Assembly (NCBI GenBank): GCA_946186455.1
Contig: CAMHNK010000002.1
Coordinates: 186 to 64,185 of the forward strand
Source: an uncultured Candidatus Saccharibacteria bacterium
GTDB taxonomy: Bacteria; Patescibacteriota; Saccharimonadia; Saccharimonadales; Saccharimonadaceae
Reading direction: 5' to 3'
Length of the DNA: 64,000 nt
Shown here piece by piece: positions 651 through 17,581 of this stretch. Positions within the stretch are counted from its first letter, which is position 1. Every line of letters starts with the position of its first letter. Made by a program: the position numbers and the translations under genes. The notes under the pieces are model-generated. The model was not told the origin of the DNA, ran no database searches, and saw only the letters and a program-made list of their open reading frames with translations.

Positions 651-1060
651 TATTTATTCTCCTTACCTGCATTCTTGTCCGCCTTTTTGGCTGCTTTTTC
701 AGCTTTCTTGGCTTCCTTTGCGCTGGTTTTATTATCTTCTTTTTCCGGCTCATCAAATACACGAATTGAATTGCCTTCAGCTAAAGTTACATAAGCGAAC
801 TTGCGGTCCTGGCGGTGAGTAATGCCTGGGTAAGCGTGCTTGCCCTTGCTGAATTTAGTTTTCTTACCGTCGCGGATCATCGTGCGAACGTCTGTAACTT
901 TCACATTAAATTCTTTTTCAACCATCTTGGCAACATCTTGTTTTGAAGTCGAGCGCTTTACGATAAATACGTAAGTGCGCTTGGTTTGCTCAAGATAGGT
1001 TTTCTCCGTAGCACGTGGCTCGAGGATATGAAGATTGATATTGGTTTTTGCGTCTGCCAT
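650..1060 (-). CDS. rplW: 50S ribosomal protein L23 with charged Lys/Ala-rich C-terminal extension
   Basis: PRATEK, YVFIV, K..VEKEFNVKV..V, K.AYVTL motifs; lies between rplD and rplB. Confidence 0.96.
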   Translation of the reverse strand: MADAKTNINLHILEPRATEKTYLEQTKRTYVFIVKRSTSKQDVAKMVEKEFNVKVTDVRTMIRDGKKTKFSKGKHAYPGITHRQDRKFAYVTLAEGNSIRVFDEPEKEDNKTSAKEAKKAEKAAKKADKNAGKENK

Positions 1061-1061
1061 T

Positions 1062-1658
1062 TTACTTCTCTCCCTTCAACCACTTTACGGTAGCTTTATA
1101 ACCTGCATCGCCGAATACGATTGCATCAGCGTTCATGATGTCAAATACATTAAGATAAGTTGCACGAACTAACTTCACATTTGGAAGGTTGTTGGTCGAG
1201 CGAAGGATTTCTGGAGTCTTCTCAGAAACCACTGCAAGTACTAACTTATCTTCGAGCTTCATGTCCTTAAGAACCTTAGCTGCAGTCTTGGTCTTGCCAT
1301 CAAGTTTGACGGTTGGCTCAAGTACAAATACAGCTTTGTCTTTGTTCTTAATCGAAAGAGCTTGGCGTACGGCTTGGAGCTTAGCGCTGCGAGAGATCTT
1401 CTTGGTGAAGTTTTCTTCGCCGGTGCGACCAAATGCTACACCACCATGGCGCCAGATTGGGTTACGAGTCGAACCAAAACGAGCACGACCAGTACCTTTT
1501 TGCTTCCATGGCTTCTTGCCACCACCTCTTACTTCGCCACGCTTCAAAGTTTTAGCGTGTGATGAACGTGAATTTGCAAGATATGCATCGTATGCAAGCT
1601 TTACTAATTCATGATTTTCGACGGAAAGGCCGAATACATCTTTATCTAAAGTAGCCAT
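1062..1658 (-). CDS. rplD: 50S ribosomal protein L4
   Basis: RGEVRGGGKKPWKQKGTGRAR..S...P.WR.GG signature. Confidence 0.98.
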   Translation of the reverse strand: MATLDKDVFGLSVENHELVKLAYDAYLANSRSSHAKTLKRGEVRGGGKKPWKQKGTGRARFGSTRNPIWRHGGVAFGRTGEENFTKKISRSAKLQAVRQALSIKNKDKAVFVLEPTVKLDGKTKTAAKVLKDMKLEDKLVLAVVSEKTPEILRSTNNLPNVKLVRATYLNVFDIMNADAIVFGDAGYKATVKWLKGEK

Positions 1659-1659
1659 A

Positions 1660-2280
1660 TTATTCCTTTCCCTCCACCGTTACGATTCCTTTTTTCGGAC
1701 CAGGCACAGCGCCTTTTAGACCGATTAGATTGTTGGCTGCATCAATGTATGCAACAACAAGATTTTTGACAGTGACGGTGTCGTGGCCCATACGGCCTGG
1801 CATTCTTTTGCCTTTGAAGACTTTCTGTGGGTACATCGAACCGATGGAACCAACTTTACGAATGTCGCCCTTAAAACCATGGGTATTACGGGATTCGTTA
1901 AAGTTCCAGCGCTTAACGGTACCGGCATAGCCTTTACCTTTGCTGATTCCGGTCACAGAAACCTTGTCACCAAGCTTGAAACTCTCAACTGTAAGAGTAT
2001 CACCAAGCTTTAGGCCTTCTGGGATTTCGTCAACACGAAATTCCTTTAGAACCTTAGGATTAATATTTTCACCGGCCTTCTTTACGTGGCCAGCAACCGA
2101 CTTGCTCAGATTCTTACCCTGACCATAACCCACCTGCACAGCGTTATAACCATCAGTTTCGACGGTTTTAATCTGAGTCACCGTGGCTGGGCCGGCTTGA
2201 AGAATTGTTACAGGAGTAACTACACCATCTTCGCCGATGATCTGGGTCATACCAATTTTGGTGCCGAGAATGACTTGCAT
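1660..2280 (-). CDS. rplC: 50S ribosomal protein L3
   Basis: GTKIGMTQ, DGYNAVQ, SKGKG, KGKRMPGRMG, KGAVPG motifs; SD-like AAGGA upstream. Confidence 0.98.
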   Translation of the reverse strand: MQVILGTKIGMTQIIGEDGVVTPVTILQAGPATVTQIKTVETDGYNAVQVGYGQGKNLSKSVAGHVKKAGENINPKVLKEFRVDEIPEGLKLGDTLTVESFKLGDKVSVTGISKGKGYAGTVKRWNFNESRNTHGFKGDIRKVGSIGSMYPQKVFKGKRMPGRMGHDTVTVKNLVVAYIDAANNLIGLKGAVPGPKKGIVTVEGKE

Positions 2281-10065: not shown

Positions 10066-11004
10066 ATGATTTGGAACGATTTACATAGACCGTTTTTGAT
10101 TTTAGCTCCGATGGAAGGCGTCACCGACGTGATTTTTCGTCAAGTCGTCGCGCGCGCCGGCCGCCCGGATCTCTTTTTTACGGAATTCACCAATGTTTCT
10201 AGCTATGCTTCCGAAAAGGGCCGTGATAATGCCCTCGAACGCCTCGAAATCGCTCCTTCCGACTCGCCGATTATCGCTCAGATTTGGGGTAAAAACCCCG
10301 AGCATTTCGCTAAAACTTGCGAAGCTCTTGAAAGCCTCGGCTTTGTCGGCGTCGATCTAAACTTCGGCTGCCCAGACAAACACGTCAACAAAGCCGGTGG
10401 TGGTGCTGCTATGATTAAAACTCCAGAGCTCGCCGTCGAATGTTTCCGCAATGCCGTGAGATCCACTAATCTCCCAGTTTCGATTAAAACTCGTCTCGGC
10501 TGGGCTAAACTCGACGAATACGAAGATTGGCTATCTACTCTCTTAAATGAGCATCCGGCTGCACTTACTGTTCATCTCCGCACTAAAAAAGAAATGAGCA
10601 AAGTTCCGGCTCACTATGAATTAATTCCAGAGATTATTAAACTTCGCGACACGCTTAGCCCGGAAACTAAACTAATCATTAATGGTGATATTAAAGATAG
10701 GACCGCTGCACTTAAACTTCACGAAACTTATCCTGAGGTTGATGGTTTCATGATTGGCCGCGGCGTCTTCGCTAATCCATATTGTTTTACCGATCACACG
10801 CCAACTCGCGAAGAGCTCATGGATTTACTCCGTTTTCACCTTGATTTACACGAAGCCGAATCGAAGAAGCATTATCTTTCTTACGAACCATTAAAGCATT
10901 TCTTCAAGATTTACATCAACAACTTCCCTGGCGCCTCGGACCTCCGCGCTAAACTGATGGAAACCCATTCCGTACCTGAAGCGCGTGCTATAATAGAGTC
11001 ATGA
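10066..11004 (+). CDS. dus: tRNA-dihydrouridine synthase
   Basis: LAPMEGVTD, DLNFGCP, SIKTRLG, H.RT, NGDI, MIGRG; start reassigned to ATG 10066. Confidence 0.93.
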   Translation: MIWNDLHRPFLILAPMEGVTDVIFRQVVARAGRPDLFFTEFTNVSSYASEKGRDNALERLEIAPSDSPIIAQIWGKNPEHFAKTCEALESLGFVGVDLNFGCPDKHVNKAGGGAAMIKTPELAVECFRNAVRSTNLPVSIKTRLGWAKLDEYEDWLSTLLNEHPAALTVHLRTKKEMSKVPAHYELIPEIIKLRDTLSPETKLIINGDIKDRTAALKLHETYPEVDGFMIGRGVFANPYCFTDHTPTREELMDLLRFHLDLHEAESKKHYLSYEPLKHFFKIYINNFPGASDLRAKLMETHSVPEARAIIES

Positions 11005-12227
11005 AAATCGCATTATTAGGTTACGGCAAAGAAGGCAAAGCTGCCGAAAAATATTTTAAAGCTAAATTCGACGCGGAGTTCGAAATCTTTGAGAACTTCA
11101 CGCGCGATGAAATCGAGAAAAAAGATTTCTCTAGTTTCGACTTAGTTTTGCGTAGCCCTTCCGTCCCACCGCTCCATCTTAAAAATGAATCCAGTTTAAC
11201 CCGTTATTTCTTTGAACACTGCCCTTGCCCAATCATCGGCGTCACCGCCACTAAAGGTAAAGGTACTACCTGCTCCTTTATTAAATCCTTGCTCGACGCC
11301 CATCATGAAGATGCCTATCTCGTCGGCAACATCGGCACCCCAGCTATTGAATCGCTTGATGCTTTGAAACCTAATTCCGTCGTTGTCTACGAAATGAGTA
11401 GTTTCCAGCTCTGGGATCTCGAAAAATCTCCACACGTCGCCGTCGTTGGCACCATCGAACCGGATCACTTAAACGTCCATAATGGTTTTGATGATTACGT
11501 GAACGCCAAAGCCAACATTTGTCGCCATCAATCAACTAAAGACTATCTAGTTTATTATTCCGAAAATCCTGATACCAAGAAAATCGCCGACACCTCAAAA
11601 GCTAAGAAACTTACTTACCCGTTTGATTTGCCGTCCGATGTGCTAGAAGCTATCGTTATCCCTGGAAAACACAACCAAATGAACGCTATGGCCGCTATCG
11701 CTGCCGTCGCCTGCTACAAAAATATCTCACCAGACGAATATTTAAGCACCTATAAAACCGAAATTATTAAAGGCTTAAAGAGCTTTAAAGGCCTCCCGCA
11801 TCGCCTCGAATACGTCGGCGAATTAAATGGTGTTAAATATTACGACGATAATTTCTCCACCAACCCAGCTTCGACCAGGGTAGCCATTGACGCCTTCCCA
11901 GATAACAATGTTATCGCCATCATTGGTGGTCGCGACAAGACGGATAACGAAGATCTCCCAGAAATCTACGAAGTTATTTCCGCAAAGAACGTGAAAAAAG
12001 TCATCCTAATGGGCGAATCCGGCCACGAAATCGCGAAACGCTGGCAAGATGACCGCTTCATTGTGGTTGAATCATTAAAAGATGCCGTAAAAACCGCAAA
12101 ATCAGAAGCCGAAAAACTGGCTAGCGCCATCGTTTTGATGTCCCCCTCCGCTGCCAGCTTTGATATGTTCGAAAACGTTTACGATCGCGGTGCTAAATAC
12201 CAAGCTTTAATTAAACGCCTCTTTTAA
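11001..12227 (+). CDS. murD: UDP-MurNAc-L-Ala--D-Glu ligase
   Basis: VT.TKGKGTT, GNIG.P, EMSSFQL, PDHL..H, HRLE, SPSAASFD.F.N..RG. Confidence 0.95.
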   Translation: MKIALLGYGKEGKAAEKYFKAKFDAEFEIFENFTRDEIEKKDFSSFDLVLRSPSVPPLHLKNESSLTRYFFEHCPCPIIGVTATKGKGTTCSFIKSLLDAHHEDAYLVGNIGTPAIESLDALKPNSVVVYEMSSFQLWDLEKSPHVAVVGTIEPDHLNVHNGFDDYVNAKANICRHQSTKDYLVYYSENPDTKKIADTSKAKKLTYPFDLPSDVLEAIVIPGKHNQMNAMAAIAAVACYKNISPDEYLSTYKTEIIKGLKSFKGLPHRLEYVGELNGVKYYDDNFSTNPASTRVAIDAFPDNNVIAIIGGRDKTDNEDLPEIYEVISAKNVKKVILMGESGHEIAKRWQDDRFIVVESLKDAVKTAKSEAEKLASAIVLMSPSAASFDMFENVYDRGAKYQALIKRLF

Positions 12228-13244
12228 TTCTTCTTCCGTTACTGGTTTAGTAGCATCAGCCGTAGTTACCGGCGTTACTACTGTTCCTGTTCCCGGAGCC
12301 GCCGCATCATTCTTAAATGGGTTTTCTTTCTCCGGTTCGGCTGGCGTATCACCTTCACCACCATTGTCTTTCTTGCCCTTGCCAAGCTTCTTGATTAGTA
12401 AGAAGAGCAAACCAAGTACGATTAAGGCGCCTTCCGAGATTGCCACAATCATCCAAATCAAAGAATTATCTTCTTTTTCTTCGCATTTCTTGCAAGTATC
12501 ACAAACTGGGCAATCTAAGCTCGCTCTCGTGACTTCCACGATGTAATCTTTTCTCGTACCGTCTTCAGCCGTTACAATTACGACAAATTTATTAAGGCCA
12601 ACTTTCAAAATCTGCTTTCCGACTGCACCAGTTACAGTTGCTTTGCTATCGGTCGCCGTTACTTTGAGGTCGATTTCCGAAACATCATTGTCGACAGTAA
12701 TCTTGTAGTTATCACCATCAAGTTTCGCTTCCTTTTCGCCAATCATAATTGATTTTACGCTCGTATCACTACTCTTCGCTGCGGTATCCGGCACTGGTGT
12801 GTCTGGAGTCGGCGTTGGGGTAGGTGTAGGAGTTGGCGTTGGCGTTGGAGTCGGCGTTGGCGTTGGCGTTGGATCCTTTACAGTTAACCGCACCATACGT
12901 GTCTTTCCAGTAATTGTTACATCATCGTAAGTCGTCATATCGGTAGCAGTCACCGTAATCACCGTCGTGCCAGACACTAAACCCGTTACCGTCACGACCG
13001 CGCTACCTTTATCAAGAAATTCCTTTGTTGTCGAAATTGAAGCTACGCCAGGATTGCTAATTGAAATATCCACGCGTCCAGCTGCATTATCTGCCGTAAC
13101 TGTAAATGTACCAGTCTTACCCTTTTCAATCGTTAGTGTCTCCGGTGACACTCTCATATCGCCAGTTGCATAAGTTAATCCAGATGGTAAAACCATCGAT
13201 AGTGCTAGGGCAATTGCTAGGAGAATGCTTTTAATCTTTTTCAT
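12207..13244 (-). CDS. membrane-anchored surface protein: Ig/cohesin-like module, PT linker, cadherin-like beta-sandwich, CxxCxxCxxC, C-terminal TM
   Basis: Signal peptide; (PT)11 linker; L.VG.N.F...VTAEDG....Y...VTR cadherin-like pattern; TM then KK; ATG 13244 overlaps the upstream TAA. Confidence 0.8.
   Translation of the reverse strand: MKKIKSILLAIALALSMVLPSGLTYATGDMRVSPETLTIEKGKTGTFTVTADNAAGRVDISISNPGVASISTTKEFLDKGSAVVTVTGLVSGTTVITVTATDMTTYDDVTITGKTRMVRLTVKDPTPTPTPTPTPTPTPTPTPTPTPDTPVPDTAAKSSDTSVKSIMIGEKEAKLDGDNYKITVDNDVSEIDLKVTATDSKATVTGAVGKQILKVGLNKFVVIVTAEDGTRKDYIVEVTRASLDCPVCDTCKKCEEKEDNSLIWMIVAISEGALIVLGLLFLLIKKLGKGKKDNGGEGDTPAEPEKENPFKNDAAAPGTGTVVTPVTTADATKPVTEEELKEAFN
12804..12872 (-). 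repeat. Pro-Thr coding tandem repeat (PT)11P
   Basis: Degenerate CCAACG hexamer array. Confidence 0.9.
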
Positions 13245-14068
13245 TACGGTCTCCATTCTCCAGTCCCATCCATAATGTATAGTCTGACTTTCACATAGTC
13301 ACCCGAAGTTACTTGATCATCTTTCGTAATATCCGCCGCAAACCAAATTGCTGAACCTTCGTCAATCGTTTCGGTTTCCATGATGTGCTTCTTAATCTTA
13401 ATATAATCAGCCGAATTAATCGAACCATCGCGGTTTACATCGCCAAGGAATGCCAAAGTATAATCAAAGTTTACGCCAGAAATCGTGATTCTCAGTTTAT
13501 CGCCGGTTATAACAGTATCATTATCGGCCTCAGACCCATCACCTCTTAAATGTGAAATCGTAGCTGAATCACCAGCTTCAACTCTGTCTTCAACATCACC
13601 AAAATCGCCGCTGTTTAGGAGGAGGATATTATCAGCAACGAATTCAAGTTGTGCATCTTCTGCAATCGACGGGCCAACGACTACGTCCACTGTATAAGTC
13701 GTAGATGAGGAGAGTTGTTCTTCGTCGAATGTTACTACGTCGGTCAGCGTCACCGTAATGGTGGCCGTACCAACACCTGCGCCGGTTACTGTGATTGTCT
13801 TGACGCCTTCGTTTTCGATACCAGAGTCGAGAAACACGCTAGTATCTGAAATCGTCGCGATATCCGTATCACTAGAAGCGATATCGACACGTCCAGCTGC
13901 ATTCGTCGCAGCAATATTAAATGTCCCGGTTCCACCATACGCCACGTTGAGATTGTCGGTCGAAACTGCCACGCTCCCAACCGCTAGCGCCGTATGCGAA
14001 AAGAGCGCAAGCATAAGTGCCACTACTGCTAGTGTCGCTCCGATTAATATTTGTTTTAGTCTTTTCAT
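13244..14068 (-). CDS. secreted protein: Ig/cohesin-like module + C-terminal dockerin
   Basis: Signal peptide; GDVNRDGSINSADYIKIKKHI...AADITKDDQVTSGDYVKVRLYI duplicated Ca-loop/helix. Confidence 0.82.
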   Translation of the reverse strand: MKRLKQILIGATLAVVALMLALFSHTALAVGSVAVSTDNLNVAYGGTGTFNIAATNAAGRVDIASSDTDIATISDTSVFLDSGIENEGVKTITVTGAGVGTATITVTLTDVVTFDEEQLSSSTTYTVDVVVGPSIAEDAQLEFVADNILLLNSGDFGDVEDRVEAGDSATISHLRGDGSEADNDTVITGDKLRITISGVNFDYTLAFLGDVNRDGSINSADYIKIKKHIMETETIDEGSAIWFAADITKDDQVTSGDYVKVRLYIMDGTGEWRP

Positions 14069-17000
14069 GAATCTCCTCCATTCATAATATAGTTTCTTAC
14101 TTTTATATAATCCATAGACGAAACCAGCGTGTCGTCATTTAGATCCGCAGCCAAGAAGTACGGCGTTGAAACAGCGATTGTTTCAATCGTCATGATGTGC
14201 TTCTTTATATCAACATAGTCTCCCGATGAAACGTCGCCATCGCCGTTTACGTCGCCGGAAACCACCATCAAATAATCATAATACCAACTATCATCGACCG
14301 ACATCCTCACCGTATCGCCGGTCCTAATCTCATCATATACTGCCTCGTTGCTATTCTTGTCGAAATGCATATAAGTTACTTCGGCATCATTAGACATCTC
14401 GAGATGGCTCGTCACATCCGTGATACCGCCCTCATGCATCTTTAGGACTCCCGAACCGCTTTCCGCGACCACGCCATCCGAAGTATCTACCACTGGACCG
14501 ACAACGGTTACAGTCATATCGCGTTCATTGCCATCGTATTGTAGCAGCAAATGAATCGTCGCTACACCTGGCTTCACGCCTACGATTTTAATGTCTTCTG
14601 GATAGTAATTATTGTCCGCATTCTTTTCATCAATTACTTCCACTGCACCGCCACCAGAATCTGTCACGGTATAGGTAACTCTCGCTGCATCCATAATCGG
14701 CTCAATATAGTTCATAAGAGACATCGTCTCGCCCTGCTTCAGTTCAATATCCGTATCAATCGTCGAAAATTCAAATAATGAAGCATTAGCAACCTTTGCG
14801 AGCAGTGGTGTTCTAGCTACGCCGTCCACCGTTCTCGTCGTCCAACCAATTCCGGTCTTATAATTATTAATCTCATTTTCATAAAACTTACCGCGCTTAA
14901 TCAGTGCCGATGCGATGTAATTCGTGAGATTAATGTCTGTATTATCTTCTTTACCGACGATTTGGTTGTGATAATCGGTATAGGTATCATCAGCTTTAGC
15001 CTTCGCAGTGATCGTACCGGCATTTTGCATAAACTTCAAAGTCAGGCCACCATAAGGTCCCACGCTACCAAATATACCGCTAGATTCTTGCCCAGACACA
15101 TCTGCCGAGGAGAAAACATATTGGAACGAAAGACTATTCGCACCATTCGCAAATGTCGTCTTACCAATTAGAGCGCCGGCATTTCCTCCGGTTGACTCAA
15201 CCGAACCACCTATAATATATATGTCCTTAAATTGCGGCGTAGTATTCATTGGGTTATAGAAACAACCAATCAACCCCGCATTTTGCGAGCCTTTAATATC
15301 CATATTGTCGATGAATATTGAAATTAATGGATAGTACGAGCCACCACCACCCTGCATATAACCAAACATGCCTGCACATTCATCATCGCTAGTCACTTTC
15401 AAATTCGAAATCTTATGGCCACCACCAGATAGTTTACCCGTAAATGGCGTCATCGCTGTACCGATTGGCGTAAATGGCTTCGTTAGCTCGATATCATTAC
15501 TGAGTTCAAACAAAGCGTACGGATATGCTCTCATCGCCGAGAATTCACTTTCCTTAGAAATCAGATACGGATCACCATCCACGCCCGTACCACCAGCTAC
15601 CGAAATACCCGAAATCGTAATATCCACATCGTCACAACTATTTTGATAGCAAATCTTGAGTATAAAATCGCCAGCCCCAATATTAGTGTTAATTGCAACG
15701 TAGGCATTAATTTTGTTGGCACCCACACCATTATTCGTTACAGTTAGATTGCCAGATGTAATATCCGTACTACCATTCCACAAAGAATAAGTTGGCGTCG
15801 CGCCAGAAGGAATGTTCTTGGTGTAAGTCATTACTTTAAGATCGTGTGTCGAGTTTTGCGGAATAATACCCACATTAATATCAATGTCATCCGTGCTAGT
15901 ATGTGGCGTATCGGTGACATTTGAAGTAAAGACACTAATCGCATTCTTAATCATTACTTTAGAGCCAGTCACACTTACCGTAAATGCCTCGCTATCTAGG
16001 ATAATATTCTGGTCCGAAACATCAATCGTAAAGACGCCCGGCCAGATTACTGTATCGTTAAACACAGTCCGATTATTAGTACCATCCGATACGGTAATTG
16101 TGTAATTTGTATTGTATGAATAAGAAATCAGTTTAATGAGTTCAAGTTTCTCTGCCCCCGGTACTTTGCGCTGTACCGTGATTGAGTCTGAAAAACCAGA
16201 GCCGCTACCATGATACCAGTGATTTCTGTGATAATTATTGTCCCAAGTTCTTTCACTCATCAGTGACAAATCGGTCGCGAAGTTAATTTGCATCGTTGAA
16301 CGATTCGAATCGTATGCAATATAAATATAATCACGGCCATCGCTTCTGACGCCCCAAGAGTTTCTCACGATCCACGCGCCCACGCCGGATATTCTTTCGC
16401 CGTTATCGCAGTTTCCATAAACATTTGGTGCTAAGTGCATTGATCCAAAACGACAGAAAACCCAAGAATAATTATCATCCCAACCGATAATCTGCATCGA
16501 GTGGGCACCGAACGCGGCATCTTGTTGGCAAGATACTTCGTCAAAGATAATTGGACGACCGTTCCAATCAGAACCACAAGAACCAGTTGGTGAACCCGTT
16601 GAAACTTCTGCACCACCATAGCGCATAATGCCATCTTTGGCATATTTAACATAGTCGCTCTGTGTCAAAGCCGCCTTTGGTAACATAATTGCACGGTTTA
16701 GTTCATAGATTGGCTGTACGTAATTCAGGATGTATGCCATTTCGCGCGGATTTACATCACTGGTTGTGTACGGGAAGAACGATTCCGGTGCGTATGCCAA
16801 GCCATTAGCTGCAATCCACGATGCCATAAAGAAATTACCGCCCTTCGTGAGTAGACGTGAGCCGTCTTCGTTTACATAGTTATTAAAACCATTCGTACTT
16901 GTAGCATAGTCCATTTGGCGGATTGAGAATTGTTGTGTGGTGAGCGCATTGTATGGTTGATTATTCTTTCTCATTAAATAGCTCTCGGCCTGTTCGTTAA

Positions 17001-17529
17001 AAGCGAAATCCCAGCAAAGCCCATAAGAACCTTGGTTTTTTAATGGTGTAATATATGATTTACCATTCACATTGCGAAGATCAAACGTTGTCGGAAATAC
17101 CTCATCCTTACTTAAATATTCGTTAAATGTCATACTTTCAGTCGTCTCAGTTGCTGGGCTCTTTTTACTGCCACCACGCTTAGTGGTTGGCTCTGCTTCC
17201 TTGGTTTCACTCAAAGCATAGGCCATCGGAATCACATCAATTTCCGCTTTTTCTTCGTCGCTAAGTTCAAGATATCTTACATATTCTGGATTAAGATAGA
17301 GTTCGCCAGGTTTCTGATTCTTTTCGGTCAAAATCAATGAGTTGTTTTCTTCATAATTCTTACGGATAAAATCCTTCGCGACATCCGGAAGATAGCTATA
17401 ATCGTCAGACTTAAGAATAATTTCAATCGCATCAAGCGCGTAGGCTTTCTGGAAACCAAAAAAGCCAGCACATATAGCAACTGCTGCAATCACTAAAATA
17501 TATCTGTTTTTTAGCTTTGACCTAAGCAT
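14065..17529 (-). CDS. secreted C1 (papain-like) cysteine protease with GLUG-like region and C-terminal dockerin
   Basis: KNQGSYGLCWDF (Q, C), HSMQIIGWDD (H), WIVRNSWG (N); GT..DPY.I, F.G.L.G.GH.ISNL; GDVNGDGDVSSGDY...AADLNDD. Confidence 0.88.
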   Translation of the reverse strand: MLRSKLKNRYILVIAAVAICAGFFGFQKAYALDAIEIILKSDDYSYLPDVAKDFIRKNYEENNSLILTEKNQKPGELYLNPEYVRYLELSDEEKAEIDVIPMAYALSETKEAEPTTKRGGSKKSPATETTESMTFNEYLSKDEVFPTTFDLRNVNGKSYITPLKNQGSYGLCWDFAFNEQAESYLMRKNNQPYNALTTQQFSIRQMDYATSTNGFNNYVNEDGSRLLTKGGNFFMASWIAANGLAYAPESFFPYTTSDVNPREMAYILNYVQPIYELNRAIMLPKAALTQSDYVKYAKDGIMRYGGAEVSTGSPTGSCGSDWNGRPIIFDEVSCQQDAAFGAHSMQIIGWDDNYSWVFCRFGSMHLAPNVYGNCDNGERISGVGAWIVRNSWGVRSDGRDYIYIAYDSNRSTMQINFATDLSLMSERTWDNNYHRNHWYHGSGSGFSDSITVQRKVPGAEKLELIKLISYSYNTNYTITVSDGTNNRTVFNDTVIWPGVFTIDVSDQNIILDSEAFTVSVTGSKVMIKNAISVFTSNVTDTPHTSTDDIDINVGIIPQNSTHDLKVMTYTKNIPSGATPTYSLWNGSTDITSGNLTVTNNGVGANKINAYVAINTNIGAGDFILKICYQNSCDDVDITISGISVAGGTGVDGDPYLISKESEFSAMRAYPYALFELSNDIELTKPFTPIGTAMTPFTGKLSGGGHKISNLKVTSDDECAGMFGYMQGGGGSYYPLISIFIDNMDIKGSQNAGLIGCFYNPMNTTPQFKDIYIIGGSVESTGGNAGALIGKTTFANGANSLSFQYVFSSADVSGQESSGIFGSVGPYGGLTLKFMQNAGTITAKAKADDTYTDYHNQIVGKEDNTDINLTNYIASALIKRGKFYENEINNYKTGIGWTTRTVDGVARTPLLAKVANASLFEFSTIDTDIELKQGETMSLMNYIEPIMDAARVTYTVTDSGGGAVEVIDEKNADNNYYPEDIKIVGVKPGVATIHLLLQYDGNERDMTVTVVGPVVDTSDGVVAESGSGVLKMHEGGITDVTSHLEMSNDAEVTYMHFDKNSNEAVYDEIRTGDTVRMSVDDSWYYDYLMVVSGDVNGDGDVSSGDYVDIKKHIMTIETIAVSTPYFLAADLNDDTLVSSMDYIKVRNYIMNGGDS

Positions 17530-17581
17530 TAGCTTAATTATACTTTTTTCTCCAAAAAAATCAATAATTAAGCATATGTTT

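Follow-up and report, generated by a model that had tools for sequence, protein, structure and literature searches.

We describe here a three-gene operon (g1, g2 and g3, all on the minus strand) carried by a 64,000-nucleotide stretch, hereafter the window, of contig CAMHNK010000002.1 from an uncultured gut or rumen Candidatus Saccharibacteria bacterium (assembly GCA_946186455.1; 707 kb in 35 contigs, 83% complete). The operon is real and conserved, and it is probably a variant of cohesin-dockerin anchoring with an unrecognised type of socket. In our reading, which is drawn from sequence comparison and to which we give a probability of roughly 0.6, the cassette would be a self-contained surface display system, in which dockerins preceded by an X domain (X-dockerins) on g1 and g2 plug into an immunoglobulin (Ig)-like module shared by g2 and g3. 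It is moreover probably the module-socket variant of a two-gene unit that is widespread in Saccharibacteria and in gut Firmicutes with small genomes, in which the gene of a dockerin-tagged hydrolase precedes that of a membrane socket. The domains, their gene order and conservation, the exchange of cargo between copies, the positional equivalence of module and cohesin and the co-variation of the dockerin with its socket are direct observations. To our knowledge cohesin-dockerin is the only partner system described for dockerins, and many genomes have dockerins without a detectable cohesin.

The first gene, g1 (14065..17529; 1154 amino acids, aa), codes for a secreted papain-type protease. Its peptidase C1 domain (residues ~146-440; 16210..17094) scores 35.9 bits with Pfam Peptidase_C1 for a cut-off of 20.7 and has the catalytic residues of papain intact in their motifs (Q166, C172, H343 and N390). 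It aligns with DPP1, with cathepsins and with Cwp84, the g1 motif NQGSYGLCW matching NQASCGSCY of DPP1 and WIVRNSWG matching WIVKNSWG. It is followed by a long beta-rich middle (residues ~440-915; 14780-16210) with repeated G-rich motifs (AGLIG, GALIG, SGIFG), for which Pfam and NCBIfam return no match, then by an Ig-like domain (residues 919-1011; 14497..14775), an X domain homologous to that of g2 (residues 1012-1091; 14257..14496) and a C-terminal dockerin (residues 1092-1151; 14077..14256). The Ig-like domain of g1 is distinct from the shared module by sequence comparison, as it has neither the NAAGRVDI nor the TD..TYD motif and reaches 2% probability against the module in hhalign. As to the protease and the dockerin, Pfam and alignment agree with the initial annotation, which had called gene 1 a secreted papain-type protease with intact catalytic residues and a C-terminal dockerin.

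The second gene, g2 (13244..14068; 274 aa), encodes a putative secreted adaptor with a signal peptide, the module (residues 30-132; 13673..13981), an X domain (residues 133-208; 13445..13672) and a dockerin (residues 209-268; 13265..13444). Both dockerins match Dockerin_1 (PF00404) above the cut-off of 22.9 bits, with 37.3 bits for g1 and 39.3 bits for g2, and D.N.DG....D is present in both repeats of each; the residues after the calcium loops (S-A/S-G versus S-G/S-M) and the KKHI and R.YI helices were found on re-reading as they had been described. Furthermore, g2 residues 92-268 match g1 residues 980-1151 with 35% identity (E 1e-24), hence the likeness of the two proteins extends over the ~75-aa X domain before the dockerin, which is added here to the earlier picture of gene 2 as a ~100-aa beta module plus a dockerin like that of gene 1. 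The AlphaFold2 model of g2, built from a 27-row alignment, has a predicted local distance difference test score (pLDDT) of 90.6 and a predicted template modelling score (pTM) of 0.77, and consists of a beta sandwich (32-131), a small strand-strand-helix-strand-strand-strand domain (141-207), and three dockerin helices. Residues 206-269 of the model superpose on the solved type I dockerin 2ccl_B (Z 11.3, root-mean-square deviation (rmsd) 1.5, 62 aligned), so that hidden Markov model and structure both identify a dockerin.

The third gene, g3 (12207..13244 for 345 aa, or 12207..13256 for 349 aa), encodes a type I membrane anchor. It begins, after the signal peptide, with the same module (residues 27-124; 12873..13166), found by the module profile and 43% identical to that of g2 (E 2e-22), and continues with a (PT)11 linker (12786..12872), a cadherin-like beta-sandwich (12522..12761; PF12733, 29.3 bits for a cut-off of 24.2), a Cys-rich stalk and a transmembrane (TM) helix (residues 242-261 and 262-287; 12384..12521) and a cytoplasmic tail of 58 aa (12210-12383). 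Pfam, identity and sequence all accord with the earlier description of gene 3 as a dockerin-free anchor. The genome as a whole (G000) has exactly two dockerins, those of g1 and g2, and exactly two modules, those of g2 and g3, and no Pfam cohesin was found in its 83%-complete assembly.

The module itself is modelled with a pLDDT of ~95 as an Ig-like beta sandwich, with Z scores of 9.3-11.8 to domains of SbsC, Big_2-CBM56, intimin and invasin. The best fold match is SbsC domain 5 (PDB 4uid; Z 11.8, rmsd 1.9, 85 aligned, 31% identity); sandwiches of Big_2, intimin, invasin and PapD/MSP type come next, and no cohesin stands among the 50 best fold matches listed (all Z of at least 8.1), for the g2 model and for a second model alike. 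The module profile also matches SbsC by sequence (E 3.9e-5), and language-model features, which serve as a lead only, point to Big_2 clusters (0.85-0.88). With Pfam, Big_2 (PF02368) gives 11.3 bits on the g2 module, under its cut-off of 22.8, while it reaches 25.4 bits in the relative P0040 and E<=1e-3 in 20 of 100 family members; Cohesin (PF00963) has no match at E<=1 in g2 or g3 and none at E<=1e-3 in 100 module-family anchors. The caveat of the initial annotation that the module may be a plain Big_2 Ig fold was therefore well placed in that the module is Big_2/Ig-like by fold and profile and not a recognisable cohesin; of the two Pfam models, Cohesin gives no match and the Big_2 level is reached by some relatives and not by g2. 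SbsC domain 5/Big_2 is the closest solved match by profile and fold, but the module differs from these domains by its own conserved motifs and by its fixed place as the first domain of a membrane anchor adjoining a dockerin gene. We know of no description of S-layer or Big_2 domains as dockerin partners.

A profile search of 1.84 billion representatives retrieved a module family of 600 proteins (clusters) at E<=1e-10. Nearly all of the best 150 are proteins of ~230-560 aa with a single module at residues ~20-125, right after the signal peptide, and a Cadherin-like domain is found in 60 of the 100 anchors scanned. In 399 Clostridia genomes there are 13 module matches, 10 of them with a same-strand gene directly upstream that ends in a dockerin; in 400 Bacilli genomes the same holds, for a gene directly upstream, in 10 of 14, which gives 20 of 27 in both classes together. 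Outside this pattern fall weak matches to large proteins with Ig repeats, the two short frames L066 and L068, a weak anchor-sized match (L044) and an orphan anchor (L058). The upstream cargo changes from genome to genome, and includes an S8 subtilase with LRR, an M6 peptidase, SH3_3 and Big_2 with HL_N-beta, in addition to the C1 protease of Saccharibacteria, while dockerin and anchor are constant. Most of the sampled Firmicutes genomes with a module are without a Pfam cohesin, and in five of them (G201, G203, G205, G221 and G458) the dockerin beside the module anchor is the sole one. Minimal anchors that consist of the module and a TM helix only also exist (L019, P0024, P0026). The cadherin-like domain was considered as the socket and rejected, given that g2 and these minimal anchors do not have it. 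In one genome (loci L071 and L061; G1045 contig C90, 19233-24872) two genes with dockerins of the same DY-type as in g1 and g2, defined below, lie within ~5 kb upstream of one module anchor, an arrangement that suggests several cargos per socket.

The same gene syntax is seen with another socket. Of 399 sampled Bacilli genomes, 86 have dockerins, usually 1-3 each, and most of these genomes are small; in 28-29 of the 30 best dockerin loci the dockerin stands at the end of its gene with an anchor gene 8-62 nucleotides (nt) later (L071-L099). These downstream anchors are of ~430-490 aa, with a signal peptide, a ~110-aa N-terminal module and a C-terminal TM helix, and 18 of 20 scanned with Pfam have a Cadherin-like domain. 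By sequence, the two-gene display cassette of dockerin plus anchor looks widespread in Bacilli. Of these 30 loci, 16 have a compact cohesin as N-module and 5 have the module, while 8 are unclassified. The compact cohesin profile matches solved cohesins (3l8q, E 1.7e-8), although only two of the 16 pass the Pfam cut-off, and its motif is GSW...L.YD...L.L; further versions occur in P0059, P0090 and L056. Compact cohesin anchors of gut Bacilli, Clostridia and other Saccharibacteria (L072-L099, L056, L005/L007/L009) share with the Saccharibacteria cassette both the gene syntax and the anchor layout, that is, signal peptide, ~110-aa N-terminal socket, linker, cadherin-like domain and TM helix; they differ by the cohesin-motif socket with DLL..QK.IL dockerins, against the NAAGRVDI / FLD / TD..TYD module with DY-type dockerins.

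Indeed, the dockerin subtype follows the socket. With the patterns DY[IVLM].[IV][KR] for the DY-type and D[LI][LFIV].[IVLM][QKR] for the cohesin side, each required in both repeats, the DY-type is present in 21 of 22 module pairs (g1 and g2 included) and in 0 of 16 cohesin pairs, whereas the second pattern is present in 15 of 16 dockerins beside cohesin-type anchors. The helix signature reads DY..IKN.IM with the module and DLL..QK.IL with the cohesin. The nominal Fisher p of 8e-10 is descriptive only, since the cassettes are kin. The changed dockerin positions lie in or beside what we take to be the helix positions that contact cohesins in type I complexes.

Several observations on the sibling anchors stand apart from this comparison. 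At L056 (G351:C1:355000-363000) a Big_12 protein of 1869 aa has a dockerin at its end, and the next gene encodes 233 aa that comprise a signal peptide, a Pfam cohesin and a TM helix; as this genome has a module-type pair too (L049), both socket types are present in one cell. The N-modules of L080 and L083, and likewise those of L084, L087, L089, L091 and L098, match neither the cohesin-type nor the module-type profile; those of L080 and L083 carry an AAWN..I motif beside DLLR.RQ.LL dockerins. These unclassified N-modules may be further socket classes. The cohesin-type N-modules of L086, L088 and L090 have sub-threshold Pfam Inhibitor_I42 (chagasin-type) matches (E 3.5e-4 to 4e-3), which probably are similarity at the level of fold. 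A 290-aa protein (L032; G202:C22:25421-28588, open reading frame 838..1710) with an N-terminal TM helix, a beta domain that weakly matches Pfam Cohesin (E 0.004) and a dockerin at the C-terminus was set aside as unrelated to the cassette.

Further evidence comes from a Clostridia genome (G294) in which cargo and anchor genes lie in one frame, separated by TAG TAA. Translation of L035:1027-1824 with table 6 gives a 266-aa chain with the X-dockerin, QQ, the signal peptide, which makes a ~25-aa linker, and the module. This read-through chain was modelled by AlphaFold2 from an alignment of 53 rows, with nine natural paired rows and unpaired rows in addition, and displays a pLDDT of 91.8 (at least 90.9 in all five models; 62-67 in the linker) and a pTM of 0.83. 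Given that two independently placed bodies of these sizes would, by our arithmetic, have an expected pTM of ~0.49, AlphaFold2 places the module relative to the X-dockerin with confidence.

The initial annotation had proposed plug-and-socket logic with the shared module as a candidate partner of the dockerins, and the module emerges as a likely one from the adjacency across phyla with changing cargo, the cohesin in the same slot, the dockerin signature and the AlphaFold2 chain. In the mechanism that we propose, g3 would hold its Ig-like socket module off the cell's own membrane on the PT linker and cadherin-like stalk, and the g1 protease and g2 would dock to such modules by their DY..IKN.IM X-dockerins, probably in a Ca2+-dependent manner. 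As g2 has both a socket and a plug, it could act as an adaptor and bridge g3 and g1, which would make the tether longer or multiply it. The physical binding, its Ca2+ dependence, its stoichiometry, the chaining of g2 and the target of the protease are what we infer here. Cwp84 of Clostridioides difficile is held at the cell by cell-wall-binding (CWB2) repeats. The protease region of g1 matches this surface papain-type protease of a Gram-positive-type envelope (E 1.3e-5; PDB 4ci7, 4d59), described as cell-surface-associated in its PDB title, but g1 has an X-dockerin instead; by analogy, its target might be host surface proteins or the cell's own.

The known systems closest to this arrangement are cell-bound single sockets, namely Clostridium thermocellum OlpA/OlpC with type I dockerins (PDB 3ul4, 4dh2) and Ruminococcus flavefaciens ScaE with the ScaB/CttA X-dockerins. 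They too have secreted partners with a C-terminal dockerin of two Ca-loop repeats and, in the X-Doc dyads, an extra domain before it, and the g2 dockerin model superposes on the dockerins of the solved ones with Z 8.4-11.3. The Saccharibacteria cassette differs from them in that its socket is not a recognisable cohesin (no Pfam match, Ig-like best fold), its anchor is a C-terminal TM helix and not S-layer homology (SLH) domains or sortase, its cargo is a protease and not a glycoside hydrolase (GH), and its dockerin signature is DY..IKN.IM; its X domain is set apart from those of X-Doc dyads by the predicted strand-strand-helix-strand-strand-strand pattern. g2 has the order of the adaptor scaffoldins (R. 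flavefaciens ScaC; C. thermocellum CipA C-terminus CohI9-X-DocII, PDB 3kcp, 4fl4), with a socket-like module, X and dockerin, and Foldseek aligns the whole g2 model to 3kcp_A and 4fl4_L at low TM-score, but it is a minimal protein with one Ig-like module. A cellulosome function is not supported: there is one socket per protein and no multi-cohesin scaffoldin, Pfam and NCBIfam found no carbohydrate-binding module (CBM) or GH domain in g1-g3, and the cargo is a protease and not a carbohydrate-active enzyme. The NCBIfam scan of the three proteins returned nothing informative. Dockerin-tagged peptidases are known from rumen metagenomes (PMC6487960), and a full-text literature search found neither the three-gene cassette nor an Ig-like partner of dockerins described, and no account of the widespread two-gene display unit.

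The operon is also conserved as a unit. The nearest records are Candidatus Saccharibacteria metagenome-assembled genomes (MAGs), including some from roe-deer omasum and goat jejunum, and in seven other Saccharibacteria MAGs from different samples all three genes are syntenic, bordered by M16 peptidase and SecA genes at one end and by murD at the opposite end, so the co-conservation that the initial annotation asked for is present. Because the same flanking genes enclose the operon in seven MAGs, a chimeric contig is ruled out. Identity over these MAGs is 79-99% for the flanking genes and 49-98% for g1-g3, as expected of fast-evolving surface proteins. L019, from one more MAG, is a two-gene form in which a C1 protease of 743 aa with an X-dockerin precedes a 252-aa anchor with module and TM helix only. 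Within the genus, 10 of 100 other sampled species genomes have the module, and a sample of 200 genomes of the family gives only weak module matches, so that the operon is a patchy accessory trait; in other Saccharibacteria of the family, anchors with the cohesin motif come after the dockerin genes. The g2-type adaptor was found only in the Saccharibacteria clade (P0001-P0009), and none of the 100 scanned anchors of the module family has a dockerin. In another genome of the genus (G667:C8:56983-58198) two module-bearing frames, one of 223 aa and one of 237 aa, are on opposite strands, unlike the operon of the window.

In an unrooted, low-resolution tree of 33 modules, the Saccharibacteria copies group with the Clostridia copies G294/G324 and a Lachnospiraceae copy (support 90/90), and the Saccharibacteria label requires 3 changes. 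The transfer from Firmicutes raised in the initial annotation on account of the dockerins is compatible with this grouping. The resolution of the tree is too low for donor or direction, and a transfer from Firmicutes is plausible, which is as high as we put it.

The ancestry of the module has two candidate solutions, a cohesin that diverged in place or its replacement by an Ig domain, and the module sits in the socket position under either. That it would be a true but very divergent, shortened cohesin, with the same mechanism, is a somewhat unlikely solution in our view. It is supported by hhalign, where a comparison of the module with the compact cohesins that sibling anchors carry reaches 92-94% (E 6e-7, 81-96 columns), compared to 0.2-0.3% for reversed controls, and where other beta-sandwich domains of the same proteins stay at 2% or below (0.3% for cadherin-like domains); the remainder of the anchor, with its Cadherin-like domain and TM helix, is homologous as well. 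However, the module scores 3.8% against canonical cohesins, 6.7% against the single cohesin anchor L056 and 87% against a small Big_2 set, while the compact cohesins score 97.7% against canonical cohesins and 1.2% against Big_2. Together with the Pfam counts (Cohesin in none and Big_2 in 20 of 100 family members), the SbsC domain 5 as best solved match by sequence and fold and the lack of any cohesin among the 50 best fold matches, this makes us lean towards an Ig-like origin.

The display reading, in which the dockerins plug into the module, has also to be weighed against a different role for the module. It could be a structural Ig spacer, its adjacency to dockerin genes being a co-expression of surface proteins, with the dockerins bound elsewhere: to a cohesin on the host or a neighbouring organism, to a cell-wall glycan, or to a cohesin lying outside the 83%-complete assembly. 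The Big_2/Ig-like profile, fold and language-model features of the module agree with such a role, Big_2 domains being common spacers, and the lack of a Pfam cohesin match in the genome does not prove absence. In another Saccharibacterium the dockerin protein SEML1_0315 was scored as essential in a transposon screen, and its authors speculated on host glycans (PMC10633639). We nevertheless judge the spacer role improbable, as minimal anchors have nothing but module and TM helix, the module comes first behind the signal peptide in nearly all of the best 150 family members, a cohesin fills the same slot in sibling cassettes with the dockerin subtype tracking the type of slot, and the read-through chain has its high pTM. 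A still more remote proposal is that module proteins regulate the adjoining hydrolase or are its substrates, in the manner of a chagasin-type inhibitor or an immunity protein, with no tether. Although chagasin inhibits proteases of the C1 class, to which g1 belongs, the Inhibitor_I42 matches are below cut-off and fall on N-modules of some cohesin-type sibling anchors rather than on the module of the cassette itself; moreover the cargo enzymes span unrelated catalytic classes, which one inhibitor fold would not serve, and the element conserved with the module is the dockerin and not the catalytic domain. Several points weigh against docking onto the module. The case is indirect, being built from adjacency, co-variation and a model, and the counts behind the first two come from homologous cassettes inherited as units and not from independent events. 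The AlphaFold2 evidence consists of the global pLDDT and pTM of a single chain, in which the linker, a hydrophobic signal peptide, could hold the domains together as an artefact. Finally, the module looks by fold and profile like an ordinary Big_2 spacer, L058 is a strong module anchor without an upstream dockerin gene, and a cohesin of the source genome could be unassembled.

Under the display reading, the module is a specific and testable candidate dockerin partner, found in the slot of the cohesin in sibling cassettes and paired with its own dockerin subtype. A more far-reaching and, as a whole, tentative proposal is that the Ig-like (Big_2-type) module has no relation to cohesins and is a dockerin receptor in its own right, forming with the DY..IKN.IM dockerins a second, orthogonal plug-and-socket system. 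The latter would serve hundreds of lineages of small-genome gut bacteria that display proteases and cell-wall hydrolases and would account for part of the dockerins without cohesins; g2 would make it extendable in Saccharibacteria, and an epibiont could even plug into sockets of Firmicutes hosts, given the grouping with Clostridia in the low-resolution tree. If the binding is true, the repertoire of natural high-affinity protein connectors is larger, which would be useful for synthetic scaffolds that need orthogonal pairs, and the cassettes show by what means ultrasmall epibionts, and gut Firmicutes with small genomes, equip the cell surface with proteases and wall hydrolases; it would also give molecular access to the surface biology of rumen Saccharibacteria that are uncultured. 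Should the module instead be a cohesin that has diverged very far, it would nonetheless mark a large family of anchors, the 600 clusters above, that current domain models miss as cohesin.

As regards expression, the coupling of the three genes behind one promoter, as initially described, agrees with what is read from the sequence: g1 and g2 overlap by ATGA and g2 and g3 by TAATG, and a single promoter-like site precedes g1. No anomaly of base composition was detected in the operon. At its far end, a convergent murD-like gene (11001..12227) overlaps g3 tail to tail by 21 nt (12207-12227), which leaves no room for a terminator between the two. The g3 start at 13244 (MKKIK) is the likelier of the two, because a GGAG lies 6 nt upstream of it. 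The promoter-like site, TTGATT-16-TATAAT (17537..17564, minus strand), is a consensus match only, and sites of this type are not more frequent in the window than in shuffled sequence. It ends 7 nt before the ATG of g1 and no Shine-Dalgarno sequence lies between the -10 box and this ATG (17529-17564), which suggests a leaderless-type start, g1 being possibly translated from a leaderless mRNA.

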